DNA of 64,000 nucleotides from an uncultured Gammaproteobacteria bacterium (GTDB lineage Bacteria > Patescibacteriota > Patescibacteriia > Magasanikbacterales > GWA2-37-8). Below are positions 7,211-60,892 of this stretch, piece by piece (positions within the stretch are counted from its first letter, which is position 1; each line of letters begins with the position of its first letter). The notes under the pieces are model-generated. The model saw only the letters and a list, made by a program, of their open reading frames with translations, did no database searches and was not told the origin of the DNA. Position numbers and translations under genes: made by a program. The stretch covers positions 439,400-503,399 of the forward strand of contig CAYHBZ010000001.1 in assembly GCA_964355175.1 (NCBI GenBank), read 5' to 3'.

Positions 7211-7302
7211 TGGCTCTGACTACAAAATTTATAATCAAAGTGTGGCGCGCCGGATCCTACTCCTTTTTAAGTTAGGGGGCGCGCGGGGTGGGAATGAAAT
7301 GC

Positions 7303-7644
7303 CTAGTGATGGGGCACCTCCTTCAGCTGCGGAGCGGCCAGTCGAGCCGTCTCGACTCGACGACGCCGGCTTGGATCGCGGACGTAGGCCGGAAGATGTT
7401 CTCCGGGACTGATCGAGCTGAACGCCGTCGGCAGTGGCTTGGGCTCGGTGTTGCGGCTGGTCGGCTGGCGCTGGCGCAAAGCAGCCCAGAACCAGGACAG
7501 CAGCTCCCCAGGTTCGGTGAACAACAGTCCGCCGACAATGGCTACCGTGCCGATCACAGGCAACAACGACTCAACGAAGTACGCCACGACGAGCAATGCC
7601 GCCGCGAGGTACTCCATGTAATCACGAAAGGTCCACTTTCGCAT
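7303..7644 (-). CDS. Small membrane protein in a GC-rich islet, two predicted TM helices plus Pro/Arg-rich tail
   Basis: 113-aa ORF with two hydrophobic helices (YLAAALLVVAYFVESLLPVI, GTVAIVGGLLF...SWFWAAL). GC is about 65% against a background of about 40%. The terminator lies downstream on the minus strand. Confidence 0.4.
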   Translation of the reverse strand: MRKWTFRDYMEYLAAALLVVAYFVESLLPVIGTVAIVGGLLFTEPGELLSWFWAALRQRQPTSRNTEPKPLPTAFSSISPGEHLPAYVRDPSRRRRVETARLAAPQLKEVPHH

Positions 7645-7750
7645 TTCTCCCCTTTGCCGGTAGGCAAGGCCGAATTTGGCCCTATACCGGACACAGCTTA
7701 ACTATCATAATTATAACAGAAAGTCAAGGGTAAAGATATAATTATTCAAT

Positions 7751-7801: not shown

Positions 7802-9550
7802 TTATGGTGTAACCAAATTTACTTTTACTTTTGCCCCACCCTTACCACTGTTACCTTGGTAAGTGAGCTCTACATACCCACCATTTTGTTTGAGCGCATA
7901 TTTTTTCTTGGCATTTACTTTGAGCACTACATTGGTGCTCTTGGCGCCATTTAATTTGAGCCAAACATAAGTGTTATTAAATTTCACTACTTGAAATTTG
8001 AAAACACTACCGTCAAATTTAAACCAGTTATTTTTACAAATAGTATAGATACCGTTGCCGCCCTGTTCATTGGTACAACTATCGCCGGTAGCATCCAGCA
8101 TAGTAGTATTGGAATCTACTTTGATCAGAGCGCGACCTTCGTCTCCTACACCCAAGTAAGTCAACATTACATATTTACCAGGTTTGTTGGTGACATAAAA
8201 AGTTTCTGGCTCATTGATCACCAGATCAGCATCATCTTCACTAAGATTGCTCAATAACACACTGGCGGTTTCACCATCATGATCCACTACTTTAACTTTT
8301 ACACCACTCCAGTAATGATCCACGGCATAGCCGGTACAAACAATGAAATTTACATTGCCGCCGGTGATATCCGAACAAGCTGGCAGAGATGAAGCGGAAT
8401 TGCCTGCGGTACTAGTAGCACTGCCGGCAGTATTAAATTTGAAGTAAGTATAATCAGACCACTGACCGGTAGAGCCGTTTGGAAAGACTGGCAACACACG
8501 AGTGCGGAATTGATTATCTCCGGCCAAAGGCGAAGTAGTGAAACTACTGGAATATGTTTTCCATTTAAAACTATCGGACCAATCGGCACCAACACCACAA
8601 TGATCACAAGCTACTTCCACCATGTAATTGTTGGCATTTTTTACTTCCAACCAATTGATAGTGGCAATACGAGGAAAATTGGTAAAAACAGAATTATTTA
8701 AAGGCGAAGTAATCGTAGTCTTGGATGACAAATCATAGCTTGAAATTGTTTCGGCTTTTTTGGCCTGACAAGCACCGGCTACACAGCCATTTTCACATTT
8801 ATACCACTGAGTATGTACATAATTTTTGCCATTGCCGGAGCTACAGTGAGTTTCGGCGATATAGTCACCGGAAGTTTTATTTTTATCGCCAATATAGGCA
8901 CCACAGCTATCACCATAAGTACCAGCAATACCGCTCACTTCATCATTACCGGTAGCAGTACCATAAACATAGTTATTGAAATTATCGCTTTCAGAACAAG
9001 TAGCGGCTGGAGCTACAGCCGGCTTGCCTTTACAAGCACCGGCCGAGCAACCATATTCACATTTATACCATTGAGTATGAACATATGGATTGGAGCTAGA
9101 ACCACTACAATATTTTTCAGCGATGAAATCGCCAGAAACTTGCCCTTGGTCACCCACATAATTTCCACAAGAATCTTGATAAGAACCAGCCACCTGACTG
9201 ACTTCATCTTTTCCGGTAGCGACACCAACAACATTATAATTCAAGCCACTTTCAGAATCACTGCAAGTAACTACCGGTGCGGCCGTACCAGTACAAGGTT
9301 TCCAATCTACGCGATATTGGGTAGCGGAAAGACAAGCCATAGTGTAATCTTTCAAACCATTACCGGCATCACGACATTCCGAAGTCAAAAAAGCGCTATA
9401 TGATCCATTCACTATCTGAATATCCTTGCCTACCTGAGTACATTTATCTACATTTACCGGATTCCAACCCACTTCCGGCAAAGCTGCTGACGCCATCTTT
9501 GGCGCCAAAGCTACCAGCAGTGCGGCCAGGAGCCAAACACTTTTTTTCAT
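7802..9550 (-). CDS. Secreted cysteine-rich protein with two tandem about 80-aa repeats
   Basis: Signal peptide MKKSVWLLAALLVALAPKMASA. Tandem repeats at aa 96-176 and 185-264 share CS(D/E)S...GDSCG...YVHTQWYKCE(N/Y)GC.AGAC. Native-like composition. Confidence 0.6.
   Translation of the reverse strand: MKKSVWLLAALLVALAPKMASAALPEVGWNPVNVDKCTQVGKDIQIVNGSYSAFLTSECRDAGNGLKDYTMACLSATQYRVDWKPCTGTAAPVVTCSDSESGLNYNVVGVATGKDEVSQVAGSYQDSCGNYVGDQGQVSGDFIAEKYCSGSSSNPYVHTQWYKCEYGCSAGACKGKPAVAPAATCSESDNFNNYVYGTATGNDEVSGIAGTYGDSCGAYIGDKNKTSGDYIAETHCSSGNGKNYVHTQWYKCENGCVAGACQAKKAETISSYDLSSKTTITSPLNNSVFTNFPRIATINWLEVKNANNYMVEVACDHCGVGADWSDSFKWKTYSSSFTTSPLAGDNQFRTRVLPVFPNGSTGQWSDYTYFKFNTAGSATSTAGNSASSLPACSDITGGNVNFIVCTGYAVDHYWSGVKVKVVDHDGETASVLLSNLSEDDADLVINEPETFYVTNKPGKYVMLTYLGVGDEGRALIKVDSNTTMLDATGDSCTNEQGGNGIYTICKNNWFKFDGSVFKFQVVKFNNTYVWLKLNGAKSTNVVLKVNAKKKYALKQNGGYVELTYQGNSGKGGAKVKVNLVTP
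8759..9265 (-). repeat. Tandem intragenic repeat, 2 x about 240 nt, encoding the Cys-rich modules
   Basis: Protein-level repeat mapped back to DNA coordinates. Confidence 0.5.
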
Positions 9551-9620: not shown

Positions 9621-9685
9621 CAAACAAAAACCGCCCGTCACTTAAAACTATAAATAAATTATAATCTTAAGTGAGTGCGGGCGGT
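9621..9685 (-). terminator. Imperfect hairpin terminator downstream of the cytidine deaminase gene
   Basis: CCGCCCGTCACTTAA ... TTAAGTGAGTGCGGGCGG, with a U-run on the minus strand. Confidence 0.35.
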
Positions 9686-9801
9686 CGAAGTGTTGGACCA
9701 TTTTTCCCTCCCCACTTGGCCTAATGACCAAGACATCCTTACGGACGGAGCGATTTGAAATTGCTCTACCCACCATATTTTGGAAGATGGGTTCATGCGG
9801 T

Positions 9802-10311
9802 TTACAACTCGAAACCACAAGGAAAGAAGTCGGCCATGGTACCGATGACGATCTGGCCGTTATCCTGAAGACAGAGAAAACGGATATTTCCGCCACCATA
9901 CTGGCTGAGCAGGCCGCGACAATGTCCACACGGCGTGTATCGAACGTCCGAGAGACTGACGATCGGCACCATGGTGTATTGAGGCGGACTGACAATACGC
10001 TTACTGCTCGGTCCAAGAGCGATAGCAACGGTATCGCAGAGCGCCCTGGGACCAAGAGCGCCGATCATCGCGGCCAGCGTGGCCGCTTCGGCGTGAATGG
10101 TGCTCGTCTGAGCATGATCTTCTACATTACAGCCATAGAACATGCGATCAACCCCGACAGGACGCAACGCCGCTCCCACCATGAACTGCGACACCGGCAC
10201 ACTCGCATGCTCACGCGCACGAATGGCTCGAGCCAGAAGCACACGATCAGCTTCGGACATTTCATCCCAGACACACACCCGCACACTACCTGTAATCTCA
10301 ATCGTCCGCAT
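9802..10311 (-). CDS. cdd: Cytidine deaminase (CDA-fold zinc deaminase), GC-rich
   Basis: HAE and PCGHCRGLL zinc-binding motifs. About 62% GC, but an AT-rich upstream region with TTGCAT-16-TAGTAT and a GGGAG Shine-Dalgarno. Confidence 0.7.
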   Translation of the reverse strand: MRTIEITGSVRVCVWDEMSEADRVLLARAIRAREHASVPVSQFMVGAALRPVGVDRMFYGCNVEDHAQTSTIHAEAATLAAMIGALGPRALCDTVAIALGPSSKRIVSPPQYTMVPIVSLSDVRYTPCGHCRGLLSQYGGGNIRFLCLQDNGQIVIGTMADFFPCGFEL

Positions 10312-10445
10312 TGCTATACTCCCAACCAGCCAGTTGATTGCTGATTTGCGGGCATACTAACATATATTTTAAAAAATGCAATGATTATACATTGGACAAT
10401 AAAAATCATAATTGATAGAATATGGCTATATAAATTCTAAAAAAT

Positions 10446-10775
10446 ATGGCTAAACAATATTTTGAATTAAAAAAAGATCAATATCGAAAAAATCGTGGAG
10501 GTTATTCACGCTTTCTAAATATTTTTTGTGACAGTTGTAGCGCGCATTTGGCTCTATATCAAAAAGATGGTCCAGGTGAACTAAAAAGAATGTACCTCGA
10601 CAGAATTTTGGCGCCAAAAATTAAAAAAAATAAAACTATGGACTTCAAATGCTCCGCTTGTCAAAAAGTTGTCGGAACTTTCTATAATTATAAAAAAGAA
10701 GATCGACCGGCAATCCGTTTGTACCAAGGATCGGTAATAAAAAAAGTCGGAATTGGAATTTATCCTTTAAAATAA
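10446..10775 (+). CDS. Zn-ribbon protein (CxxC...CxxC), AT-rich paralog
   Basis: 109 aa. RGGYSRFLNIFCDSCSAHLALYQKDGPGELKRMYLDRI...CSACQ. About 50% identical to the GC-rich ORF at 13157-13522. A TTGGAC-18-TAGAAT promoter lies upstream. Confidence 0.55.
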   Translation: MAKQYFELKKDQYRKNRGGYSRFLNIFCDSCSAHLALYQKDGPGELKRMYLDRILAPKIKKNKTMDFKCSACQKVVGTFYNYKKEDRPAIRLYQGSVIKKVGIGIYPLK

Positions 10776-10787
10776 ATAGCGTAAAAA

Positions 10788-10822
10788 AACAATGCCTACT
10801 GAATTGGCATTGTTTTTTATTT
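10788..10822. terminator. Bidirectional terminator
   Basis: AACAATGCC-tactgaatt-GGCATTGTT with an A-run on one side and a T-run on the other. It ends both the plus Zn-ribbon gene and the minus GC-rich operon. Confidence 0.6.
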
Positions 10823-10922
10823 TAAAGACACAATACAAATATTATGTTCTTAATACGGGGTCTGCAGATGCGGCTACAGATTATCCCCTCCCTTTTCCTT
10901 TTGTGAAATGACCGCATTCAAA

Positions 10923-11486
10923 TTAGAACGACTGGATGTAGTTGGTGAAAATCGCTTGCGCGATTCGACTGATCTGACCCTCTTGCGAGACGATCTCATA
11001 GTCGTAATCACCGACATACCCCAAAGCCCAGAAACGCTCCAGCTCCTTTTGCGCGCTAGCGAAACGCGCACCGTCGGCATCCCGACCGTCTTTTCCCAAA
11101 CGCTGACGAAGCACGTCGAGCGAAGGCGGAGAAACGTAGATCGAGAACAGTTGACCAGGGAATGCCTGCTTCATGATCGACAGTCGATCGATCGGCCAGT
11201 CCAGCACCGGGAATTTCTCGGCGGACAGAGCCGCTTCAATCGGCAACCTCGGCGTCCCGTAAAGGATTCCGCCGAAGAGTTCGTTGACCACGAGCAGTTC
11301 GCCACGTTGCGACATTGCATCCATCTGGCTACGGCTCACCGAAACCTTATTCCTCTCTCCTTCCCGAAGCGGACGAGTCATGTAGGGACAGATGTAGACG
11401 AAGCGGTCGTCGAGTTTCGACAACTCGTCGATGACAGCACTCTTGCCCACGCCCGACGGACCCAGCAACAGCATGAACCTGCTCAT
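10923..11486 (-). CDS. Guanylate kinase-like NMP kinase, GC-rich
   Basis: P-loop LLLGPSGVGKS, Gmk-like TRPLREGE, and PPSLDVLRQRL / DYDYEIV segments. The start ATG overlaps the upstream stop (TGATG). AGGAGG lies 6 nt upstream. Confidence 0.6.
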   Translation of the reverse strand: MSRFMLLLGPSGVGKSAVIDELSKLDDRFVYICPYMTRPLREGERNKVSVSRSQMDAMSQRGELLVVNELFGGILYGTPRLPIEAALSAEKFPVLDWPIDRLSIMKQAFPGQLFSIYVSPPSLDVLRQRLGKDGRDADGARFASAQKELERFWALGYVGDYDYEIVSQEGQISRIAQAIFTNYIQSF

Positions 11487-12322
11487 CACTTCCTCCTTTC
11501 CAGGTTGAGAGCTTCTTTCGTCGTGACCGTAGCCATTTGAACGGCTGTTTGCCACGACTCAGAAGCGCCTGGATAGAGCAGGCCGCGAGAAGAGTTCACG
11601 AAGACGCCGAGACCTTCCGAGTTGAGCAGTTTGCCCAGATCCTGGTAGCTTCCACCTTGAGCACCGACACCGGCGAGCAGGATCGGCATGTTGTTCGGGA
11701 TGAGCGGGCGGATATTGTTCATATCCAACCCTGCCGTCGAGGACAACACGGGGATCATGTTACCGTTGCGATTCCAACGATTCACCACCAGGTCCAGCAT
11801 GTACTGCCAGAGCATGCGACCGTCATGGAGACGGACATCCTGAACAACACCGCCGGAGATGTTGCTCGTCTTGACGAGTACAACGACAGACTTGTCTTTG
11901 AGCTCCATGAGCGGTTCGATGACATCGTCCCCCATGTAGGGGTTCACGACGACACCGTCCGCCTGGATCTCTCCAAACAGGTTGTCGATGTAGGCCGCCA
12001 TAGTGTTCTCGATATCGCCGATCTTGCAATCGACAATCACGGGAACTCCCGGCAAAGTGCGATGGACGTAGTGGACGATCTCCTTGAGTACATCATGTCC
12101 ACCGGACATGAGATCGAAGAACGCCTTCTGCGCCTTGAACGCACAGACATGTGGACCAGTAGCATCCACGGCTCCCTGCAGAAACGCCAGAACCTTTTCT
12201 TCCTTGCTCCCGGGCTGTTCCAGCACTGCGCGCGGCAGTTTGGAAAAATCCGGATCAAGGCCGGCGCACAATAGAGTGCCCTGCTCGCGCATACGCGCGA
12301 AGAGTTGCTGATTCGCAATCAT
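11486..12322 (-). CDS. Orotidine-5'-phosphate decarboxylase-like (type 2 ODCase family), GC-rich second copy
   Basis: AGLDPD and VIVDCKIGDIENT preserve the DxKxxD catalytic motif. Paralogous to native pyrF at 41352-42170. AGGAGG SD. Confidence 0.65.
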   Translation of the reverse strand: MIANQQLFARMREQGTLLCAGLDPDFSKLPRAVLEQPGSKEEKVLAFLQGAVDATGPHVCAFKAQKAFFDLMSGGHDVLKEIVHYVHRTLPGVPVIVDCKIGDIENTMAAYIDNLFGEIQADGVVVNPYMGDDVIEPLMELKDKSVVVLVKTSNISGGVVQDVRLHDGRMLWQYMLDLVVNRWNRNGNMIPVLSSTAGLDMNNIRPLIPNNMPILLAGVGAQGGSYQDLGKLLNSEGLGVFVNSSRGLLYPGASESWQTAVQMATVTTKEALNLERRK

Positions 12323-13132
12323 TTACCCCTCCTGGATGTGAAGGCCTTGATGGTTGAGGTGTTGGCCCTTGGCGGCCAAATGGCGAGCGGTATGCTCGGT
12401 GGCCGGCACGATCACCGGCACGAGCTGGTCGCTAACCTTGTAGCCGTTTTCGCCAAAGACTGTAGCCTTGTAGGGGTTGTTGGTCGCCAGATCAATAGCA
12501 CACGAAGACGGCACCTCGAAGAATTTGAGGATGCAGACGACGCCGGAGTAGGTCCGGACATCGATGACGCCACCAGGTGCCAAGAGGCTGGCCGACTCGA
12601 CCGTGTTCACCTTGAGCTGTTCTTGAAGCCAGAGGGTAGCGAGCTTGAAGGTCAAGCCCATCCCCCGGCCATCTTGACGCGGGATGTTCACGATCATACC
12701 TTCCCCGACCTCGGCGAGCGTCTGCATAGCCAGCTTGAGTTGCTGACAGCATTCGCACGTCCGATCGCCGAAGACCTGGCCGGTTTCGCATCCCGAATCG
12801 GTACGCAAAACCAACCGTTCCTTCCGCTTGAAGACGGGGTTGAGGGTATTGAGGTCGATCTCGCCCCGAAGCAGCACGGAGTATTTCTCCCACTGGTCGT
12901 CGATGGCGAAATTGTACTGCCAAAACGACCCGAACTCGGTGTTGAGAACGCCGAGACCACGACGCTCCACGAAGTAGAAACGCCTGTCTCCAGCCTCCAC
13001 GACATCGATGCGCTTCTGCACCGGCTGCATAGAGCTCTGGACGAGAGCGATGAACTTCTCAACTTCCTGAGGGGACATGCCCGACTTGGCAATGATCTTG
13101 ATCATGTCGGGCGGGGGAACGCTGATAGCCAT
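12323..13132 (-). CDS. GTP cyclohydrolase II-like protein, GC-rich, with a non-canonical residue at the ring-opening Tyr position
   Basis: LRTDSGCETGQVFGDRTCECCQQL matches RVHSECLTGD..CDCGxQL (zinc Cys). NIPRQDGRGMGL matches YHRQEGRNIGL with Tyr replaced by Ile/Pro. LATNNPYK matches LLTNNPKK. AGGAGG SD. Confidence 0.65.
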   Translation of the reverse strand: MAISVPPPDMIKIIAKSGMSPQEVEKFIALVQSSMQPVQKRIDVVEAGDRRFYFVERRGLGVLNTEFGSFWQYNFAIDDQWEKYSVLLRGEIDLNTLNPVFKRKERLVLRTDSGCETGQVFGDRTCECCQQLKLAMQTLAEVGEGMIVNIPRQDGRGMGLTFKLATLWLQEQLKVNTVESASLLAPGGVIDVRTYSGVVCILKFFEVPSSCAIDLATNNPYKATVFGENGYKVSDQLVPVIVPATEHTARHLAAKGQHLNHQGLHIQEG

Positions 13133-13156
13133 GGCTATCCTCCTGATGCTTGATGG

Positions 13157-13522
13157 TTACAGATTGGTCGGCGGGTACATCCCGTCGCTCTTCTTCTTGC
13201 CGAAGGAGCCGGGCACCATACGGAAAGCCAGACGATTTTCCGGTTCGTACACCATGGGGGTGGCGATGAGCACATTGCACTGAGGGCAGAGCAGGTTGGG
13301 CAGCGCCTTCTTGTCGAGGGCCTTGCCCTTCAACTCGGCCAAAGTCGGCGGAGCGAAGATGCGATCGACATACATGCGCAAGAGCGCGCCAGGGCCGTCC
13401 TTTTGGTAAAGGGCGACATGGGCGTGGCAAGCGCAGCAGACGATGTTGAGGAAGCGAGAATCGCCTCCACGAGCCCGCGAGTAGCTGTCCCGCTTGGCCT
13501 GAAACTTGATTGGTTCGGTCAT
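13157..13522 (-). CDS. Zn-ribbon protein, GC-rich paralog, first gene of the operon
   Basis: 121 aa. RGGDSRFLNIVCCACHAHVALYQKDGPGALLRMYVDRI...CPQC. 24 nt upstream of the GCHII-like gene. Confidence 0.5.
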   Translation of the reverse strand: MTEPIKFQAKRDSYSRARGGDSRFLNIVCCACHAHVALYQKDGPGALLRMYVDRIFAPPTLAELKGKALDKKALPNLLCPQCNVLIATPMVYEPENRLAFRMVPGSFGKKKSDGMYPPTNL

Positions 13523-13648
13523 GGTTCCTCTGTTAGGTGAGAGTGGATGGTTGTTTGAGCTTTTGGTTAATCATTCATTATCAAAGAACCGGCCCTAGAC
13601 TACCACAATTTTTTGTTTTAAGCAAGGGTACGAGCTATTAATAAATTT

Positions 13649-15406
13649 CTAAAATTTTTGTTTATTCCATAATTCAAAAAATCTACCTTTCTCTTCCATC
13701 AAACTTTTAAAATAACCAGTCTCAATTAATTCTCCATTTTCGAGCAATAAAATTTTATCCATTTCTTGGATAGTGGTGAGGCGATGCGCAATCACTATTG
13801 CCGTCACTTCTTGAAAAAATTTATGCAGTGAATCTTTTATTTTTTCTTCGGATTCCAGATCCAAATGAGAAGTAGCTTCATCCAAAAATAAAATATCCGG
13901 CTTTTTAAAAATCGCTCGGGCAATACCGACTCTCTGCTTTTCTCCACCAGACAACTTTACACCCTTTTCCCCTATCAAAGTATCTAGACCTTCTGGCAAT
14001 TTCGACATGAAATCCGTAATATGAGCCACACCCACAGCCATTTGCAAACGCTCTTTGGACTCTATATTACCGCCGGCCATAATAATATTTTCTTTAAGAG
14101 AAAAATTTAAAACTTCTGTATCCTGCAAAACCACGGCCGTATTTTGGTAAAACGAACTCTTTTTAATTTTGCGGATGGAAATATTGTCGAGCAAAATATC
14201 GCCGGTAAAATTTTCGTACTCCTTGAGCAATAATTTAAACAAGGTGGATTTGCCGGCTCCAGATAATCCCACTATTCCAACTCTTTGCCCGCGTTTGATC
14301 TCAAAGGAAATATTCTTTAACACCGCGCGATCACCGTAAGAAAAAGAAACATTTTTAAATTGAATAGTCTGCCAATTGATTGGAAAATTTATTTTGTTGG
14401 CATCGTTGTCGATCAAAACTTTTTCGTTTAAAACATCTTTTAGACGGCTGACATGATATCTGGCTACTACCAATTCCTGAGAAACGTGGGAGAGCTCCTC
14501 TGCCGAAGTGCGCAGGTTGATAAAATAAAGATTAAACAGCAACAAAAATCCCAAATCATAACGCCCCGCCGCAATACCAAAAGCTATTAAAACCATGGCG
14601 CCGACGCGAAAAAAATGTGACCAATTGCTTTGGATAAAAATTTTGACGGCAAAAATATTAATACGTCTGGCTGTGCTTTTATAAACCTTATCAGCGTAGT
14701 TTCCCAACTTAGGAAAAAGCTGACCAAACATACCCATTACTTTGATACTGCGAATATTGTTGAGAATTTCAAAAGACAGACCATGCAAATCTTCTTCTTG
14801 GCGACTTACTTCCTTAGCTGCGGCCACCACCCGTCTACTTATCGGCATTACCGCCGTGAGATAGGTGACTAAAAATACAAGCACAATCAAAGCCACGCGC
14901 CAATCGATAAAATACAAAATAATTATCATGCCGACAAAGTTGACCCCAATTTCAATCAAATTGTTTATCCAAATTCGCAAAGAGGTTTCTATGCCAAGCC
15001 CGCCACTCTCGATGCATTTGAGGCGATTGCCGGTATTTTCTTTTTCATGCCAAGCAATATCTAGCAGACTGATATGACGAAACGCGTTTACCTGAGTTTC
15101 CAAATTTACTTTTTTGCCAACCTTACTACAAAGAAATTTGCCGGCTTGACGAACATTGTTGGAATAGATATAGGCCAGAGTCCAGATAATAAGTATATAC
15201 CAAAAAGGCTTCAAAGAATCGCCGGGATTATAGTGATTGAAAAAAGAAATAACTTTGGCCAAAGCCAAAGAGGTGTATAGGTAAATGCCGTCGGCGCTCA
15301 AACGCAACAAAGTGGCTAACCAAAATTTACCCTTTTGATTACCCAGAGAGCTATAAACATCGGAAGCAAGAGAGAAATAGGAGTAGTCGGTTTTTGAATT
15401 CTTCAT
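13649..15406 (-). CDS. ABC exporter, fused permease + ATPase (MsbA/MdlB-like)
   Basis: Six predicted TM helices followed by Walker A GLSGAGKST, signature LSGGEKQR and Walker B ILFLDE. Start chosen at MKNSKTD. The ORF track extends to 15466, but the repeat/terminator abuts it. Confidence 0.75.
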   Translation of the reverse strand: MKNSKTDYSYFSLASDVYSSLGNQKGKFWLATLLRLSADGIYLYTSLALAKVISFFNHYNPGDSLKPFWYILIIWTLAYIYSNNVRQAGKFLCSKVGKKVNLETQVNAFRHISLLDIAWHEKENTGNRLKCIESGGLGIETSLRIWINNLIEIGVNFVGMIIILYFIDWRVALIVLVFLVTYLTAVMPISRRVVAAAKEVSRQEEDLHGLSFEILNNIRSIKVMGMFGQLFPKLGNYADKVYKSTARRINIFAVKIFIQSNWSHFFRVGAMVLIAFGIAAGRYDLGFLLLFNLYFINLRTSAEELSHVSQELVVARYHVSRLKDVLNEKVLIDNDANKINFPINWQTIQFKNVSFSYGDRAVLKNISFEIKRGQRVGIVGLSGAGKSTLFKLLLKEYENFTGDILLDNISIRKIKKSSFYQNTAVVLQDTEVLNFSLKENIIMAGGNIESKERLQMAVGVAHITDFMSKLPEGLDTLIGEKGVKLSGGEKQRVGIARAIFKKPDILFLDEATSHLDLESEEKIKDSLHKFFQEVTAIVIAHRLTTIQEMDKILLLENGELIETGYFKSLMEEKGRFFELWNKQKF

Positions 15407-15466
15407 ATATGCAAATATGCAAATTACTATAACATAATAAAATTCAAAAAACAAAGCTGAAAACAA

Positions 15467-15561: not shown

Positions 15562-16491
15562 CTAGATATCTTTACGTTCCAGGATATTAAACCCATCCAA
15601 CACCGCATCACACAAAAAATTTTCTAATTGGCTATTATCTTTTTTAGTTTGGGCTTTATATAAAAAAGTATAATATAATCGTTTCTGTTGTTGGTGAATA
15701 ATGGCGGGGGCAAAATTATGTCGCAATAACATTGCCGTCATAAGCAAACGACCAACGCGCCCATTACCATCGGAAAAAGGATGCACCTGTTCAAACTGTC
15801 TGTGGATATCAGCCGATAATGAAATAATATCGCTATTTGATTTTGCGGCCAAAATAACTATCTCGTCAATCAATTTTGGCACACTCATAAAATTGGCAGT
15901 GGCTAAATTTACTCCCAAAATTCTCACGCCATGCCGACGATACAATCCGGCGTCAGATTGAATACCGTTCATCAAAATACTATGTAATTTTAAAATAAAA
16001 TTTTCGTCAATCTTTTTCTTTTTGAGGACATGCTCAAATAAATAATTCAAAGCAGTCTGGTGATTTTTTGCCTCCATTTGTTCGGCCAAACTTTTGTTGG
16101 GCAAGGCCACATTATCAAAAATAATAGCCGCGGTATCCGGCTCTGTCAAGGTACTCCCCTCGATACTATTACTATGGTAGGTCAACTTTAAAATAAACTG
16201 ATCACGGATATCCGGATTATCCAAAATTTCCTTCACAATATTTTTGTGTTCAGATGACTTTTTACTTAAAAATTGTTTTTTGGCAATTAATTGGGTGGCC
16301 GGAATAATTTTTTGACCGGTCATTTCTAAAAACAATTCATCTATGGCTATCTGCATTTTTACTCTTGGTACAGATTTTTCATTCCACCAATTATTGAAGG
16401 CCACAAAAGATACCCCCAGTTTATAGGCTATTTTAGTCTGAGTAAGACCAGACATTTTCTGAATTGTTTCAAGTTTTTGCTTGATTGTCAT
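15562..16491 (-). CDS. HTH-Fic fusion protein (Fic/Doc family, N-terminal XRE-like HTH)
   Basis: Fic motif HPFSDGNGRVGRLL. Inhibitory-helix-like SNSIEG. N-terminal HTH MSGLTQTKIAYKLGVS. Confidence 0.85.
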   Translation of the reverse strand: MTIKQKLETIQKMSGLTQTKIAYKLGVSFVAFNNWWNEKSVPRVKMQIAIDELFLEMTGQKIIPATQLIAKKQFLSKKSSEHKNIVKEILDNPDIRDQFILKLTYHSNSIEGSTLTEPDTAAIIFDNVALPNKSLAEQMEAKNHQTALNYLFEHVLKKKKIDENFILKLHSILMNGIQSDAGLYRRHGVRILGVNLATANFMSVPKLIDEIVILAAKSNSDIISLSADIHRQFEQVHPFSDGNGRVGRLLMTAMLLRHNFAPAIIHQQQKRLYYTFLYKAQTKKDNSQLENFLCDAVLDGFNILERKDI

Positions 16492-16606: not shown

Positions 16607-16643
16607 AAAGACGCCTTTTGATGAAGGCGTCCTACATTGTGCA
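16607..16643. repeat. 37-bp direct repeat, right copy, overlapping the tRNA-Arg 3' end and its terminator
   Basis: See the left copy. The last 4 nt overlap the tRNA 3' terminus. Confidence 0.6.
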
Positions 16644-16711
16644 CTCATTAGGAGTCGAACCTAAATTTTCGGCTTCGCAGGCCAATGTCCTATCCATTGA
16701 ACGATGAGTGC
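16640..16711 (-). tRNA. tRNA-Arg (anticodon GCG)
   Basis: Manual cloverleaf. Acceptor stem GCACTCA/TGAGTGC. D-loop AATGGATA. Anticodon stem TTGGC/GCCGA with loop CTGCGAA. T-arm TTAGG-TTCGACT-CCTAA. Discriminator A. 72 nt. Confidence 0.8.
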
Positions 16712-17274: not shown

Positions 17275-17291
17275 ATTGAAAATTTGACCAG

Positions 17292-17365
17292 TGGATGATA
17301 CTGGATTTGAACCAGTGACCTTTGCAATGTGAATGCAACGCTCTAACCAACTGAGCTAATCATCC
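17292..17365 (-). tRNA. tRNA-Val (anticodon CAC)
   Basis: Manual cloverleaf. Acceptor stem GGATGAT/ATCATCC. D-arm GCTC-AGTTGGTTA-GAGC. Anticodon stem TTGCA/TGCAA with loop TTCACAT. T-arm ACTGG-TTCAAAT-CCAGT. Discriminator A. Confidence 0.75.
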
Positions 17366-37128: not shown

Positions 37129-37157
37129 GGCCACCCGTAATTGGGTGGCTTTTTTTA
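37129..37157 (+). terminator. pyrBI attenuator (intrinsic terminator in the leader)
   Basis: GGCCACCC-gtaatt-GGGTGGC followed by TTTTTTT, about 15 nt before the pyrB ATG. Confidence 0.55.
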
Positions 37158-37171
37158 AACAATTTAAACCT

Positions 37172-38107
37172 ATGGCCACGAACCTCACAGGCAGAGACAT
37201 CATCTCGATAAAAGAAATAGGCAAAAACGAAATCTTGGCGGTTTTAAAAAATGCCAAACAATTAAAAAAGAACCCCCAACCACAACTCCTAAAAAATAAA
37301 GTAATGGCCAGTTGTTTTTTTGAGCCTTCTACTCGCACCCGCCTTTCCTTTGAGAGTGCCATGCAACATTTGGGCGGCTCCGTAATAGGATTTGCCGATC
37401 CGGGCGTCACCTCCACTAAAAAAGGTGAGACTTTGTACGACTCTATAAAAATCATCGGACAATACGCCGATGTCGTAGCTATGCGTCACCCAATGGAAGG
37501 TGCCGCCCGCCGCGCTTCCGATGCTACCGACAAACCAATCTTGAACGGCGGCGACGGTGCCAACCAACATCCAACCCAAACTCTGCTGGATTTATTTACT
37601 ATCCAAGAATGTCAAAAAAAATTAGAGGGGTTGGATATCGCCCTAGTCGGTGATCTAAAATATGGCCGTACTACTCACTCCCTAGCTCAAGCATTGATAC
37701 ATTTTGGCGCGCACTTATATTTTGTGGCGCCCGATTCATTACAAATGCCGGAATATATTTGTGAAGAATTAAAAGAAAATAAAGTGAAATTCTCCCTGCA
37801 TTCCAAAATTGAAGAAGTAATAAACAAAGTAGACATACTATATATGACACGCATTCAAGGCGAACGTTTTGCCGATCCAATGGAATATGAAAAAATAAAA
37901 AATGTCTTTGTGCTCAATGCTAAAATGCTAGAAAAATCTCGTTCTAATATGCGGGTCTTACACCCTCTACCAAGAGTAAACGAAATTACCACTGACGTAG
38001 ACAAAACCAAACATGCCTACTATTTTGAACAAGCGGAGAATGGCTTATATGTGCGCCAGGCCCTTTTAGCGATGGTGCTCGGCAAATTAACTAATACCCT
38101 TAGATAA
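37172..38107 (+). CDS. pyrB: Aspartate carbamoyltransferase catalytic subunit
   Basis: [13 protein letters not shown] and HPLPRVNEI motifs. Start placed at MATNL after the attenuator. The track start of 37145 lies inside the hairpin. Confidence 0.85.
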
Positions 38108-38113
38108 TTTTGT

Positions 38114-38590
38114 ATGAAAAATAAAGAACAAATTCGCGCTTTCAGAGTATTTGCCATCAAAGAAGGTACTGTCATTGATCATATCCCGGCCAAACAAGCT
38201 TTAAAAATTATTCAATTTTTAAAACTATATAACAACGAAAAAATAGTTACTGCTGGCTTTAATTTTCCAAGTAAAACCCTAAAATTAAAAGATATTATCA
38301 AAATAGAAGGACGAGAATTGACAGAAGAGGAGGCCAACCAGGTGGCAATTTTGGCACCTACCGCTACCATCAATATTATTAAAAACTTTGACCTGGTGAA
38401 AAAATTCCCCGTAATGATACCCGCTCAAGTGGAAAAAATAGTTATCTGTCCAAACCCAAAATGCATTACCAATAACGAAAATATGGAAACGATTTTTTAT
38501 ACCAAAGCTCGCGGAGCCAAGGTAGACCTACAGTGTCGTTACTGCGAAAAAACTTTTTCTCAAGATGACATCAAGCAATACCGAGTTTAA
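38114..38590 (+). CDS. pyrI: Aspartate carbamoyltransferase regulatory subunit
   Basis: C-terminal zinc domain CPNPKCITN...CRYCE. Confidence 0.85.
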   Translation: MKNKEQIRAFRVFAIKEGTVIDHIPAKQALKIIQFLKLYNNEKIVTAGFNFPSKTLKLKDIIKIEGRELTEEEANQVAILAPTATINIIKNFDLVKKFPVMIPAQVEKIVICPNPKCITNNENMETIFYTKARGAKVDLQCRYCEKTFSQDDIKQYRV

Positions 38591-38599
38591 TTTCCTGAC

Positions 38600-39787
38600 A
38601 TGAAAATAAAAACTTATAACAATTTAGAAATTGAATTGGATTTGCCTCCCAACTCGGACACTACCAATCTAATAGCTTTACCTGCCCTGATTGATACCCA
38701 CGTGCATTTTCGCACGCCTGGCGCGGAATACAAAGAAAATTGGGAAAGTGGTGCCAAAGCGGCCATTGCCGGCGGCGTGACCAGCGTACTGGATATGCCC
38801 AATAATACTCCGTCTATTACTACCGAGGCAATTTTGGATGAAAAAATAAAAATAGTAGAAGCACAATTAAAAAAGGTTGGCATTCCCCTGCATCCTTATT
38901 TTTATCTTGGCGCCACCTTGGATAATTTGGAAGAAATAGAAAAATGTAAAAATAAAATAATCGGAGTAAAAATATTTATGGGCGCCAGTACCGGTAATTT
39001 ATTGGTATCAGATTACGAAACGCAAAGAAATATTTTTAAAAAATGTGCCGAGCTAAATATAGTAGTGGCTGTACATGCTGAGGATGACGATATCATCAAC
39101 GCTCAAAAAAATAAATTTCCTAGCGCCACCGTAAACGACCACGGAAAAATTCGCCCCAATATTGCGGCCCTGACTGCCGTAAAAAAAGCGATAAATTTGG
39201 CACGCGAAACTGGCGCTATTTTGTATATTCTCCATAGTAGCACTACTGAGGAAATAGCGCTGATTCGCCAAGCCAAAAAAGAAGGACTCCGGGTATTTGC
39301 CGAGGTCACTCCTCACCACCTATTTCTCACTGAGGAGGCCTATGGCACACTTGGCGCCAAAGCGCAGATGAACCCGCCTTTACGCTCCAAAGATGACCAC
39401 AAAGCCCTCTGGGAGGCCATAAAAGACGGCACCGTGGACACCGTAGGTACCGATCATGCTCCCCATACTTTACAGGAAAAAACCTTACCTTATCCACAGT
39501 CACCATCAGGTGTGCCGGGCATTGAAACCTACTTACCACTATTGCTTGACGCCTATAATGCGGGTAAAATTACTTTGGAGAAAATTGTGGAATTAACCCA
39601 TACTAATCCCCAAAAAATCTTTGATATAAAAGAAACCGGTGACCTGGTTTTGGTGGATTTAAACCAAGTGAAAAAAATAAAAAATGAAGATCTAAAAACT
39701 AAATGTGGTTGGAGTCCTTTTGCCGGCAAGGAATTAAAAGGTACGCCAAAATTTACAATTTTAAATAATATAATTTATAAAATTTAA
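38600..39787 (+). CDS. pyrC: Dihydroorotase
   Basis: LIDTHVHFRTPG metal-binding motif. Amidohydrolase fold. Confidence 0.8.
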   Translation: MKIKTYNNLEIELDLPPNSDTTNLIALPALIDTHVHFRTPGAEYKENWESGAKAAIAGGVTSVLDMPNNTPSITTEAILDEKIKIVEAQLKKVGIPLHPYFYLGATLDNLEEIEKCKNKIIGVKIFMGASTGNLLVSDYETQRNIFKKCAELNIVVAVHAEDDDIINAQKNKFPSATVNDHGKIRPNIAALTAVKKAINLARETGAILYILHSSTTEEIALIRQAKKEGLRVFAEVTPHHLFLTEEAYGTLGAKAQMNPPLRSKDDHKALWEAIKDGTVDTVGTDHAPHTLQEKTLPYPQSPSGVPGIETYLPLLLDAYNAGKITLEKIVELTHTNPQKIFDIKETGDLVLVDLNQVKKIKNEDLKTKCGWSPFAGKELKGTPKFTILNNIIYKI

Positions 39788-39790
39788 TCT

Positions 39791-40738
39791 ATGCGTCATC
39801 TCATCTCACTCAAGGAGCAAAGCAAGGAAGATATTTTGAAAATGCTCGATATGGCAATCAAATTAAAAGCTAAACGCCAAGCCAGAGAGTTGACAAATAT
39901 TTTACCAAACCAGACATTGGTAATGCTATTTCAAAAAACTTCTACTCGCACTCGCCTATCATTTGAAGCCGGCATGACAGAGCTTGGCGGTCATGGTATA
40001 TTTTTGGACAGCCGCACCTCACAGCTTTCACTCACTGATTTTGGCGATGAAATTCAAGCTATCATGCGCTTTGGACAAGTGCTAATGTTCCGCGCGCTTA
40101 AAGCCGATGATGTAATCAAAGCCGCGTCATATAATCGCGTACCGGTAATCGATGCTTGTAGCGAAAAATATCATCCAGCTCAAGCCCTGAGTGATTTGCT
40201 CACTATGGCCGAAAAATCAAACGGCATTGAAAATGTAAAAAAAATAACTTGGCTTGGTGTAGAAAATAATGTATCCAACACTCTCATGCTCGCCTGCGCC
40301 AAACTTGGTATCCAAATAGCCATCTGCGCTCCGGAAGCCAACACCCAGAGTATTGATCCGGAATTAAACGCCGTGGCCGAAGCTACCGGCATGGTGACAC
40401 GCACTACCAACCTACAGGAAGCTCTCAAAGACACCAACTATGTACATACCGACACTTGGATGGATATGGAATTTTTTGAAAATGGCCAAGTGAAACCTAG
40501 TTTCCAGGCGGAATATGATCGCCGCAAAACTACGTTTATGCCTTTTCAACTCAACGCCAATTTAATAAATATTTACTCTCCTCAAGCAAAAATAATGCAC
40601 TGTATGCCATGTCACATCGGCTATGAAATTACTCGCGACGCTATTGATCATCCAAATTCCGTAATTTATGATCAGGCCGAAAATCGTATGCATATGCAAA
40701 AGGCGATGATTCTTTGGTTACTGAACAAAGAAGTTTAA
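39791..40738 (+). CDS. Ornithine carbamoyltransferase-like enzyme with non-canonical substrate loop
   Basis: STRTRLSFE carbamoyl-phosphate site. HCMPCH matches OTC HCLP. The OTC DxxxSMG loop is replaced by TDTWMDMEF. Confidence 0.55.
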   Translation: MRHLISLKEQSKEDILKMLDMAIKLKAKRQARELTNILPNQTLVMLFQKTSTRTRLSFEAGMTELGGHGIFLDSRTSQLSLTDFGDEIQAIMRFGQVLMFRALKADDVIKAASYNRVPVIDACSEKYHPAQALSDLLTMAEKSNGIENVKKITWLGVENNVSNTLMLACAKLGIQIAICAPEANTQSIDPELNAVAEATGMVTRTTNLQEALKDTNYVHTDTWMDMEFFENGQVKPSFQAEYDRRKTTFMPFQLNANLINIYSPQAKIMHCMPCHIGYEITRDAIDHPNSVIYDQAENRMHMQKAMILWLLNKEV

Positions 40739-40750
40739 AAAAATAAATTT

Positions 40751-41350
40751 ATGATCAGAGAAGAATTGGTAAATAAACTATTTGAAATCAACGCTGTAAA
40801 ATTTGGCGAGTTCAAACTCAAAAGCGGTATCATGTCGCCAGTATATATCGACCTACGCGTAATTGTTTCCTATCCGGAAGTACTCAAAGCGGTCGGCGAA
40901 GCCATGTGGGAAAAAGTAAAAAATCTAAAATTTGATCTACTCTGTGGCGTACCATATACGGCTCTGCCAATCGCCACGGCTATCTCTCTAAAGCATAATA
41001 TTCCGATGATTATGCGCCGTAAGGAAGTAAAAGATTATGGCACTAGAAAAGCCATTGAAGGCGCTTTCACTGCCGGTCAGCAAGTATTGGTGGTGGAAGA
41101 TTTAGTCACCAGCGGCAGCAGTGTTTTTGAAACCATCGAGCCACTTGAACTCGAAGGATTAAAAATCAACGATGTCATAGTAATGCTTGATCGCGAGCAA
41201 GGCGGCAAAAAACATATCTCTGAAAAAGGAAAGAATTTGCACTCGGTAATTACTATGAGCGAGCTGGTAGATACTCTAGAAAAAAATAATAAATTGGACA
41301 CGCAAACCGTACAAAAAGTGAAAGAATTTATCCAAAACAATCAGGTCTAA
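40751..41350 (+). CDS. pyrE: Orotate phosphoribosyltransferase
   Basis: PRPP-binding VLVVEDLVTSGSS. Confidence 0.85.
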   Translation: MIREELVNKLFEINAVKFGEFKLKSGIMSPVYIDLRVIVSYPEVLKAVGEAMWEKVKNLKFDLLCGVPYTALPIATAISLKHNIPMIMRRKEVKDYGTRKAIEGAFTAGQQVLVVEDLVTSGSSVFETIEPLELEGLKINDVIVMLDREQGGKKHISEKGKNLHSVITMSELVDTLEKNNKLDTQTVQKVKEFIQNNQV

Positions 41351-41351
41351 T

Positions 41352-42170
41352 ATGATAATGGAAAAAGTAAAAAATATTATCGCCAAAAATAATTCGCTGG
41401 TCTGTGTGGGATTAGATACGGAAATTTCCAAAATTCCCGCTCATTTAAAAAATGTAGAATTTCCTCAATTTGAATTCAACAAAGCCATTATTGACGCCAT
41501 TGCCGATTTAGTATGCGCCTTTAAACCCAACACTGCCTTTTACGAAGCTCAAGGCGAGCAAGGAATACACGAACTAAAAATGACCTGCAATTATTTGAAA
41601 GAAAAATATCCAGCAGTACTTTTAATCCTCGATGCCAAACGCGCCGACATTGGGAATACCAACAACGGCTATGTAAAATTTGCTTTTGATTATTTGCAGG
41701 CCGACATGATTACTCTTCACCCCTACTTGGGACAAGAAGCACTCGCGCCATTTCTAGACCGCGCCGATAAAGGCAGTGCCATTCTGTGTCGCACTTCCAA
41801 TATTGGCGCCGGAGAATTTCAAGATCTGAGAATAAACAACAAGAGTCTATTTGAAATAGTAGCCGAAAAAGTGGTAAAACTTTGGAATACAAATAATAAT
41901 TGTTTATTGGTAATAGGAGCCACTTATCCTGAAGAAATGGAACTGATCAGATCCAAAACCGACACTATGTTTTTCTTGGTTCCAGGCATTGGCGCTCAAG
42001 GCGGCGATCTGGAAAAAACTTTATTATCCGGATTAAATTCAGAAAAAAGTGGTTTGATAATTAGTTCTTCCCGTGGCATAATTTTTGCCGACAACACCGA
42101 AAATTTTGCCATCAAAGCGCGCGAGGAAGCGCTGAAATTAAAGGATGAAATTAATAAATACAGAATCTAA
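41352..42170 (+). CDS. pyrF: Orotidine-5'-phosphate decarboxylase, type 2
   Basis: VGLD and LILDAKRADIGNT motifs. Last gene of the pyr operon. Confidence 0.85.
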   Translation: MIMEKVKNIIAKNNSLVCVGLDTEISKIPAHLKNVEFPQFEFNKAIIDAIADLVCAFKPNTAFYEAQGEQGIHELKMTCNYLKEKYPAVLLILDAKRADIGNTNNGYVKFAFDYLQADMITLHPYLGQEALAPFLDRADKGSAILCRTSNIGAGEFQDLRINNKSLFEIVAEKVVKLWNTNNNCLLVIGATYPEEMELIRSKTDTMFFLVPGIGAQGGDLEKTLLSGLNSEKSGLIISSSRGIIFADNTENFAIKAREEALKLKDEINKYRI

Positions 42171-60718: not shown

Positions 60719-60892
60719 AGTTGGAAAATTTATCTAGAGCGGTGCGAGGGATTCGGCCCGATGACCACCCAGCAACCCCCTAAACCGGGGTGCTAATTCC
60801 GACCCTATTTAGGGAAAGATTTGTCCGTTTTAAACGGAAACAGTTTGCTTGTAGTCTGTTATCTTTCTTTATTTAGATAACGGATTTTTTTG
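60719..60892 (+). ncRNA. Candidate structured ncRNA or riboswitch-like leader of about 170 nt, family not recognised
   Basis: Bounded by its own promoter and an intrinsic terminator (CTGTTATCT-ttctttattt-AGATAACGG plus T7). Internal hairpins CCCTA/TAGGG and TCCGTTT/AAACGGA. G/C-rich paired segments GGCCCGATGACCACCC...CCGGGGTGC. No ORF. Confidence 0.35.

Follow-up and report, generated by a model that had tools for sequence, protein, structure and literature searches.

A laterally exchanged Patescibacterial operon of diverged nucleotide enzymes and zinc proteins, most likely a dedicated nucleotide-processing module

Why should a member of the Patescibacteria, a huge and mostly uncultured group with minimal metabolism that is thought to live on host nucleotides, carry an operon of diverged nucleotide enzymes in addition to its own pyrimidine genes? 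The question is raised by the minus-strand genes at 13522-10923 of a 64,000-nt stretch of contig CAYHBZ010000001.1 (hereafter, the window). In order, they encode a zinc protein (ZnR1), a protein resembling GTP cyclohydrolase II (GCH), a paralogue of orotidine 5'-monophosphate (OMP) decarboxylase (OMPDC), and a P-loop nucleoside monophosphate (NMP) kinase of the guanylate kinase (GK) fold, as proposed in a preliminary description made from the nucleotide sequence; that description missed a fifth gene, ZnR2, on the opposite strand at 10446-10775. Comparative sequence analysis identifies this cassette as an accessory operon exchanged laterally among Patescibacteria. Most likely it encodes a dedicated module of several nucleotide-processing enzymes with a non-canonical nucleotide as product, and not a part of housekeeping riboflavin, pyrimidine, or GMP metabolism.

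Sampling one genome per GTDB species and inspecting 10 kb on either side of each hit, we recovered 35 loci, approximately 28 of which carry the ZnR, GCH, OMPDC, and GK genes on one strand and in that order. The hosts, nearly all of them Patescibacteria, are Magasanik-, Uhr-, Yanofsky-, Andersen-, Moran-, Nomura-, Azam-, and Peribacteria and Saccharimonadia, besides a small number of bins labeled otherwise. The GCH-like protein has more than 430 relatives of ~270 aa (56-92% identity), their named sources being almost all metagenome-assembled genomes (MAGs) of Parcubacteria or Patescibacteria, and the cassette-type OMPDC has more than 1200, mostly from Patescibacteria where the source is named. 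The same order is seen on hundreds of metagenome contigs, and gaps or overlaps of no more than ~50 nt are kept in the gene calls of other assemblies. A ZnR2-type copy adjoins the cassette in ~14 loci, on either side and on either strand. Departures from the common plan include a Peribacteria locus (L031) in which an NTPase_1 gene replaces OMPDC and a HAD-like gene is added. Public annotation labels the proteins RibA, pyrF, guanylate kinase, or "hypothetical"; the first three of these automated labels are probably misleading for metabolic reconstructions of the candidate phyla radiation (CPR).

When all flanking open reading frames (ORFs) were clustered and 127 neighboring proteins were scanned with Pfam, the flanking genes proved unrelated with one recurrent exception, a short (~210 aa) thymidylate-synthase-like gene at five loci. 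The difference in GC content between cassette and flank ranges from -0.10 to +0.15 across genomes, the cassette being sometimes the GC-poorer of the two. This mismatch in both directions, together with the unrelated flanks, argues that the cassette moves as a unit and has passed laterally more than once between CPR lineages that differ in base composition; the high GC content of the window copy is a mark of lateral origin from another Patescibacterium, not of function. Many matches lie on contigs of 2.7-2.9 kb, and because the two that were inspected (L040 and L041) hold exactly the four cassette genes, assemblies appear to break at the cassette borders. Logan contig L040 (2820 nt) bears a perfect 30-nt terminal inverted repeat (1-30 and 2791-2820), which is either real, marking a segment that can invert or move, or else a k-1 effect of the de Bruijn graph; none is present on L041 or in the window, where no inverted or direct repeats were found flanking the cassette.

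Recent transfer was considered as the source of the GC-rich composition and was rejected. The closest species representative, a Magasanikiibacteriota MAG (L005), is syntenic on both sides and has the same GC-rich cassette (55% vs. 44%), with amino-acid identities to the window of 69-85% for cassette proteins and 71-88% for flanking proteins; it also carries a low-GC convergent ZnR2 that is 80% identical to that of the window. These comparisons place the GC-rich allele already in the common ancestor of the two genomes. In L013, a third genome from the Magasanikbacteria, a cassette of matching composition lies close to the same conserved block of genes. The three together would fit a replacement in situ, by a GC-rich allele, in the ancestor that L005 shares with the window genome.

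Within the window the four genes are tightly coupled (Table 1): ZnR1 and GCH are separated by 24 nt, GCH and OMPDC by 0 nt (TAAATG), and OMPDC and the kinase overlap by 1 nt (TGATG). The kinase start is the conserved ATG (MSRFMLLLGPSG...), at which all homologues begin, and not the GTG at 11555 that is listed by the ORF finder. An AGGAGG Shine-Dalgarno sequence, reported in the preliminary description for every gene, was found ahead of GCH and OMPDC; the kinase is preceded by AAGGAGGAA and ZnR1 by GAGGA. That such strong sites are unusual for this genome was borne out: taking native gene starts from the longest ORF, GGAGG or AGGAG occurred upstream of 0/66 other window genes, and any four-base core upstream of 2/66. 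Genes outside 10900-13600 are essentially without a Shine-Dalgarno motif, in contrast to the strong sites of the imported cassette, which suggests initiation independent of Shine-Dalgarno pairing in the window genome. The GC content of the cassette is 57.1% (55.8-59.6% per gene; GC3 0.69-0.78) versus 39.9% in the rest of the window, so that the earlier figure of ~62% for the cassette was too high. ZnR2 has a native-like GC content of 32% and its own promoter-like site at 10393-10421. The hairpin between the convergent kinase and ZnR2 genes is probably a bidirectional terminator that closes the operon. An Rfam search over 10700-13750 at gathering and relaxed thresholds identified no riboswitch or leader RNA, the one weak match being to an irrelevant small RNA. 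Two plus-strand ORFs lie antisense to the kinase (10908-11540, 210 aa) and to GCH (12305-13153, 282 aa) and appear "conserved" in L005; they are most simply explained as a by-product of high GC content, with few stops, over conserved coding sequence, and not as genes.

Table 1 Coordinates of the cassette genes and of the features that adjoin them in the window.
Feature	Coordinates	Strand	Description
ZnR1, first operon gene	13522-13157	minus	121-aa zinc protein; two CxxC pairs (C29/C32, C79/C82)
GTP-cyclohydrolase-II-like (GCH)	13132-12323	minus	269 aa; PF00925; RibA branch by sequence; ~50-aa N-terminal extension
OMPDC paralogue (type 2)	12322-11486	minus	278 aa; PF00215
GK-fold P-loop NMP kinase	11486-10923	minus	187 aa; start ATG 11486; PF00625
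ZnR2, ZnR1 paralogue	10446-10775	plus	109 aa; convergent with operon; frequent fifth cassette member
Perfect 13-bp hairpin between convergent GK-like and ZnR2 genes	10784-10818		A and T runs on either side

Profile searches place the three enzymes in the expected Pfam families (GCH, 7e-20; OMPDC, 1.5e-14; kinase, 4e-17), and each departs in its own way from its textbook counterpart. When GCH was aligned to E. coli RibA (2bz0) and M. tuberculosis RibBA, all residues common to RibA and the family were found to be kept, including the zinc site and Arg128. The three zinc cysteines (C115/C126/C128) follow exactly the CX2GX7CXC motif described for RibA (PMC10366380). The R152-Q-D-G-R-G157 loop is present, as the preliminary description had noted together with the cysteines, and the further correspondences from RibA to GCH are R49=R110, Q91/R94=Q153/R156, K101=K163, Q108=Q170, D126/R128=D191/R193, and NNPxK=N218-N219-P-x-K222. 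The claim that the ring-opening tyrosine is replaced stood in substance, a hydrophobic residue being found in its place. That residue is Leu167, which aligns with Tyr105 of RibA and is shared by at least 90% of the family; Ile150/Pro151, which had been named instead, align with Tyr88/His89. Full conversion of GTP to DARPP by RibA requires Tyr105, which is said, in work of Ren et al. in 2005, to aid the zinc-bound water. A RibA paralogue with a Tyr-to-Met exchange reportedly halts at the formylamino-pyrimidine nucleotide, hydrophobic replacement giving the formyl product (Spoonamore and Bandarian, 2006/2008). GCH falls below every curated RibA cut-off (NF001591, 94.7 vs. 148; TIGR00505, 73.4 vs. 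205.85). Its nearest non-cassette relatives (40-44% identity) also have the leucine and form a tandem pair beside the DHBP synthase gene ribB in a Marsarchaeota MAG (L038). Apart from this archaeal outgroup, none of ribB, ribD, ribH, or ribE was found near the cassette at the bacterial loci with annotated neighbors. Two-step chemistry from the formylated nucleotide AFRPP to DARPP is described in PMC9478397, as are the separate formamidases ArfB and BrbF, neither of which was found near the cassette.

The chief alternative to the working model given below draws on the enzymes of uracil catabolism (URC). In a route of this type, OMPDC would form UMP, the kinase and a housekeeping Ndk would raise it to UDP and UTP, and GCH would act as a UTP cyclohydrolase, releasing pyrophosphate and opening the pyrimidine ring like URC1 of fungal and bacterial uracil catabolism; the zinc protein would bind uracil in the manner of cereblon CULT. 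It is the sole scheme that lines up all three enzymes without missing chemistry. UTP cyclohydrolase itself was described by Zhang et al. (ACS Catal 2021, as cited in PMC12507026). GCH is always linked to the UMP-forming OMPDC and, at L034, to pyrE-pyrF, and the kinase lacks guanine contacts (below). Andersen et al. reportedly showed in 2008 that URC1 is genetically linked in bacteria to a UMP-forming uracil phosphoribosyltransferase (UPRT). The only recurrent neighbor is the thymidylate-synthase-like gene, and CULT domains, which bind uridine and deoxyuridine, are among the (weak) fold matches of ZnR. The family profile of GCH, however, matches RibA with E=1e-20 and the UTP cyclohydrolase of PDB 7eev with E=1.6 at 14% identity, placing GCH by sequence on the RibA branch and not on the UTP-cyclohydrolase branch, and a structural search likewise grouped it with RibA. 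GCH also has the RibA-type cysteine spacing, and its archaeal relatives sit in a riboflavin context. Neither URC4 (DUF1688) nor UPRT is among the 25 commonest Pfam families of the 127 neighbor proteins scanned, and no urea-handling gene lies nearby. Any cell has UMP and would need no private OMPDC for this purpose, and pyrimidine degradation would bring little evident gain to a CPR cell that scavenges nucleotides. On balance we consider a URC-type route unlikely, though a serious contender. Four plasmid-record contexts that were inspected as a source of bacterial URC1 turned out not to be URC clusters.

The OMPDC paralogue, in contrast to GCH, passes the curated model of its family, scoring 182.7 bits against a cut-off of 110.6 for the type-2 PyrF equivalog TIGR02127 (pyrF_sub2), and aligns to Leishmania OMPDC (3qw3) with E=8e-32. 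Its DxKxxD motif is intact (D98-C-K100-I-G-D103), as are GLDPD21-25, K63, NPYMG, KTSN151-154, GAQGG220-224, and SSRG; D23, K63, D98, K100, D103, TSN, Q222, and R246, which comprise the Asp/Lys tetrad and the phosphate-gripper residues, are at least 90% conserved among cassette OMPDCs. It duplicates, as had been claimed, the native pyrF (41352-42170), to whose product it is 33% identical, so it is neither single-copy nor in a pyr operon context. The native gene of this redox-poor organism ends a row pyrB-pyrI-pyrC-(OTCase-like)-pyrE-pyrF at 37145-42170, in which the pyrC is a pyrC-like amidohydrolase, a second gene of the ornithine/aspartate carbamoyltransferase (OTCase/ATCase) fold is present, and pyrD (dihydroorotate dehydrogenase) is absent.

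A decarboxylase with every catalytic residue and a score above the PyrF equivalog cut-off, labeled pyrF by public pipelines, could simply be a second PyrF, for instance one that salvages host orotate through PyrE. The operon would then be a co-regulated but non-sequential nucleotide supply, in which a broad NMP kinase stands beside a RibA-like enzyme for flavin precursors or for hydrolysis of GTP or 8-oxo-GTP to release pyrophosphate, and the zinc proteins are regulators. Phosphoribosyltransferases, NUDIX, HIT, MazG, Maf, and thymidylate synthase genes adjoin the cassette in some genomes and suggest a general nucleotide-metabolism neighborhood, and the ribB linkage of the archaeal GCH relatives points the same way. 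What makes this explanation quite unlikely is the strict order, coupling, and co-transfer of the genes over distant lineages; these features, and the joining of ZnR to two of the enzymes in fusion proteins, argue for a functional unit. The window genome, moreover, has pyrE-pyrF already, GCH lacks Tyr105 and falls below the RibA cut-offs, and no other rib genes accompany the annotated bacterial copies.

The kinase retains the P-loop (GPSGVGKS) and the phosphate-binding TRxxRxGE motif of its family, but the likeness implied by the preliminary term "guanylate kinase-like" does not extend to the base pocket. When 24 cassette kinases were aligned with the yeast and E. coli Gmk, the four residues that contact guanine in yeast Guk1 were lost in 24/24: S34 is replaced by P, Y50 is deleted, E69 is V or I, and D100 is P within an invariant LDWPI motif. 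The score on the Gmk model TIGR03263 is 77 bits, below the cut-off of 160.45, and there is weak similarity to PhnN. These replacements predict that the kinase cannot recognize guanine in the usual way. In Peribacteria, AAA_28-type kinases take the place of the GK-fold kinase. A purine-derived product, favored in the preliminary description, is accordingly one option among others, given a kinase that is not guanine-specific and recurring partners that are pyrimidine enzymes (OMPDC, pyrE, and thymidylate synthase).

Pyrimidine genes are indeed found at the edges of the cassette. At L034, pyrE-pyrF directly precede the GCH-like gene, and in a divergent variant (L044/L045) the thymidylate-synthase-like gene opens the operon, followed by GCH, OMPDC, and GK, with ZnR convergent. 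Such thymidylate-synthase-like genes lie beside the cassette (L002, 12306-12932; L017, 10328-10957; L018, 10286-10924; L044, 9163-9798). Their nearest model is the methanogen-type thyA TIGR03283, at scores below cut-off, and they retain the catalytic Cys together with the dUMP-binding R-S-D...N; their CPR hosts are folate-poor.

No Pfam family reaches threshold for the ZnR proteins, which share the invariant motifs RGG, YQKDGPG, RMYxDRI (RMYLDRI), and RLAFR; ZnR2 is 49% identical to ZnR1 (E=1e-33). An exhaustive profile search with the family gathered 629 clusters (50% identity), the majority of them of CPR origin. The fold is predicted to be a β-tent (Yippee/CULT/RIG-I-CTD-like), with cereblon CULT and the C-terminal domain (CTD) of RIG-I/LGP2 among the matches, at weak structural scores. 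Stand-alone archaeal members at L046 (6001-6354) and L047 (2371-2724), located between prolyl-tRNA synthetase/LSM and malic enzyme/fumarase genes and mis-annotated by one source as ribosomal protein S27E, imply that the ZnR family is wider than the cassette. Among the longer ZnR matches are four separate GK-ZnR clusters, one ZnR-GCH cluster (P0349), and one NTPase_1-ZnR fusion; the GK-ZnR fusions keep the cassette kinase motifs and the ZnR-GCH fusion keeps the leucine. A 403-aa GCH of L044 was considered as another ZnR-GCH fusion and rejected, since its N-terminal 230 aa contain no CxxC.

Conserved order, coupling, co-transfer, and domain fusions together speak for joint action of the proteins as a unit, probably in a complex. 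The absence of a match to a known riboflavin, toxoflavin, folate, or queuosine pathway, asserted in the preliminary description, stood, and the recurrence of the cassette and the ZnR fusions mark the four genes as a dedicated unit. Housekeeping roles are most likely excluded by the separate native pyrE-pyrF, by a kinase devoid of guanine contacts, and by a GCH that lacks Tyr105, scores below the RibA cut-offs, and has no rib genes beside it at annotated bacterial loci. Taking the chemistry of each family at face value, we propose the following working model. GCH, a member of the RibA branch, would take GTP, release pyrophosphate, and open the imidazole ring. It would stop at the formamidopyrimidine nucleotide (AFRPP, or FAPy 5'-phosphate), because Leu stands in place of Tyr105, without the deformylation that leads to DARPP. 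The kinase, its base pocket rebuilt away from guanine, would phosphorylate a non-guanine NMP made by the module, either the monophosphate product of GCH or a UMP-type product of the OMPDC paralogue, which would itself decarboxylate OMP or a close 6-carboxy analogue. The β-tent zinc proteins would bind nucleotide and hold the kinase and GCH together, such that labile intermediates are handed on directly. Overall, the module would yield either a non-canonical nucleoside di- or triphosphate or a pyrimidine nucleotide with an opened ring.

Several points weigh against this proposal. The identity of the product is guesswork. A GTP-derived route does not account for OMPDC, since AFRPP and DARPP carry no carboxylate, and this is the weak point of the model. 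The pyrimidine partners (pyrE-pyrF in L034 and the thymidylate-synthase-like genes, counted at 6 loci in all) agree no less well with a route through uridine nucleotides. Nor does the model specifically predict a kinase without guanine contacts, because the N1/N2/O6 face persists in a ring-opened guanine. Artefacts of gene calling might in principle be among the fusions, which is unlikely for GK-ZnR because the four clusters are independent and divergent. We therefore hold the working model as a whole tentatively, at somewhat less than an even chance. Its boldest form is doubtful: a hitherto undescribed pathway in which a physically coupled complex of four or five proteins starts from GTP, or from a nucleotide derived from OMP, and makes a new nucleoside di- or triphosphate that is ring-opened or otherwise non-canonical, such as a phosphorylated formamidopyrimidine nucleotide. 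If it were true, the product could serve Patescibacteria as a precursor of a cofactor, as a signal, or as a weapon aimed at hosts or phages, and the β-tent ZnR proteins would represent a new type of subunit or enzyme for handling nucleotides.

A kinase paired with an NTP-modifying enzyme also recalls viperin-plus-kinase modules, and the cassette could be an anti-phage or antagonistic system that depletes GTP or makes a chain-terminating or mutagenic analogue (a FAPy-type triphosphate), with the RIG-I-CTD-like zinc protein as sensor. The patchy distribution and frequent transfer would suit such a role, as would the location in variable regions, where some genomes have restriction-modification, Fic/SoFic-like, and recombinase genes next to the cassette, and the RIG-I/LGP2 CTD among the (weak) fold matches of ZnR. 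Searches for corroboration returned little: the best PADLOC match is a 31-residue P-loop stretch of the kinase to HEC-01A (E=0.0056), which is not convincing, PHROGs yielded a generic guanylate kinase family for the cassette kinase only, and no viral contig in IMG/VR carries the cassette. Given further that the scheme has no recognizable effector and no place for OMPDC, and that the cassette has long resided at the same conserved locus in three Magasanikbacteria genomes, defense appears improbable.

The preliminary description had drawn two further neighbors into the pathway, a deaminase of the cytidine deaminase (CDA) fold and an ABC exporter, which with GCH, the decarboxylase, and the kinase would make and export a modified purine metabolite. 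All of these genes lie within 6 kb, and the CDA-fold gene (9802-10311, PF00383, 169 aa) is GC-rich like the cassette (56%) and keeps its HAE and PCGHC zinc motifs at scores below the cytidine-deaminase cut-offs. It has no homologue beside the cassette at any other locus, however, and the exporter (13649-15466) is native low-GC DNA, missing at the syntenic L005 and not recurrent beside the cassette. The comparative data thus contradict this version, which we regard as extremely unlikely, and neither gene is retained as a pathway member.

The surroundings of the cassette have features of their own. Two more GC-rich patches lie in the low-GC region beside the cassette, one at 7242-7701 (61%), which contains overlapping ORFs of ~113-137 aa only, and one at 9650-10360 (56%), which contains the CDA-fold gene; L005 has similar patches at the corresponding place that are not homologous to the CDA gene, and this part of the window has the look of a mosaic assembled from separate acquisitions. 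A Fic-domain protein (15562-16491, minus strand) matched the PADLOC candidates PDC-S04 (3e-45) and SoFic. Together with the ABC exporter it sits between the cassette and the genes for tRNA-Arg (16639-16711) and tRNA-Val (17291-17365), both proteins are missing at L005, and the stretch may be a small insertion beside tRNA genes. A 582-aa secreted protein with internally repeated Cys-rich modules and no Pfam match is encoded at 7802-9550 (minus strand), and its L005 orthologue is 82% identical and 671 aa long. Further away, a SAM (S-box) riboswitch at 60727-60825 (plus strand) scores 57 bits and exceeds its gathering score.

Although each enzyme has a known fold, their combination, the remodeled pocket of the kinase, and the β-tent partner family are undescribed in the literature we searched, in which no paper was found that names GTP cyclohydrolase II, orotidine, and guanylate kinase together and the sole match to GTP cyclohydrolase II with Patescibacteria was unrelated. 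A self-contained, laterally traded operon in hundreds of genomes, made up of diverged copies of three textbook nucleotide enzymes and an uncharacterized zinc family, points to undescribed nucleotide chemistry. It could reveal a fate of GTP or OMP not seen before, substrates of a new class for kinases of the GK fold, or a biochemical role for bacterial β-tent domains, and with four small soluble proteins the case is directly testable.

Comparison with known systems sets the cassette apart at each of its components. GCH is ~26-30% identical to RibA, from which it differs by the additional ~50-aa N-terminal extension and by the replacement of H51, E53, and D58 with D, G, and Q. The closest known proteins are RibA itself and its variants that give a formyl product (of the Streptomyces coelicolor SCO6655 type, which resemble archaeal GTP cyclohydrolase III, ArfA, in function). 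Unlike these, GCH invariably occurs coupled to OMPDC, kinase, and β-tent protein, with no rib genes or ArfB/BrbF-type formamidase nearby. To the URC pathway, in which UTP cyclohydrolase URC1 (PDB 7EEV) is linked to UPRT and URC4, the resemblance of GCH is marginal; the cassette would obtain UMP from OMPDC instead of UPRT, lacks URC4/DUF1688, and adds a kinase and zinc proteins.

The OMPDC paralogue shares with de novo PyrF of type 2 the TIGR02127 assignment and all catalytic motifs, and the pyrE-pyrF pair ahead of GCH in L034 is a further likeness to the de novo pathway. It nevertheless forms a separate subfamily, with 50-87% identity among cassette copies and the signatures KxQKA, NTM, and AGxGxQGG, and travels with the cassette instead of with pyr genes. 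The kinase has the P-loop NMP-kinase fold, the PF00625 assignment, and the phosphate-binding Arg of Gmk and of ribose-1,5-bisphosphokinase PhnN. It differs from Gmk in its replaced or deleted guanine contacts, with a shortened loop as in PhnN, and from both in its fusion to a β-tent domain in some lineages. The ZnR proteins, finally, are likened to the β-tent domains of MsrB, Yippee/Mis18, cereblon CULT, RIG-I/LGP2 CTD, and GFA, from which they are distinguished by invariant motifs of their own and by scores below the Pfam thresholds.

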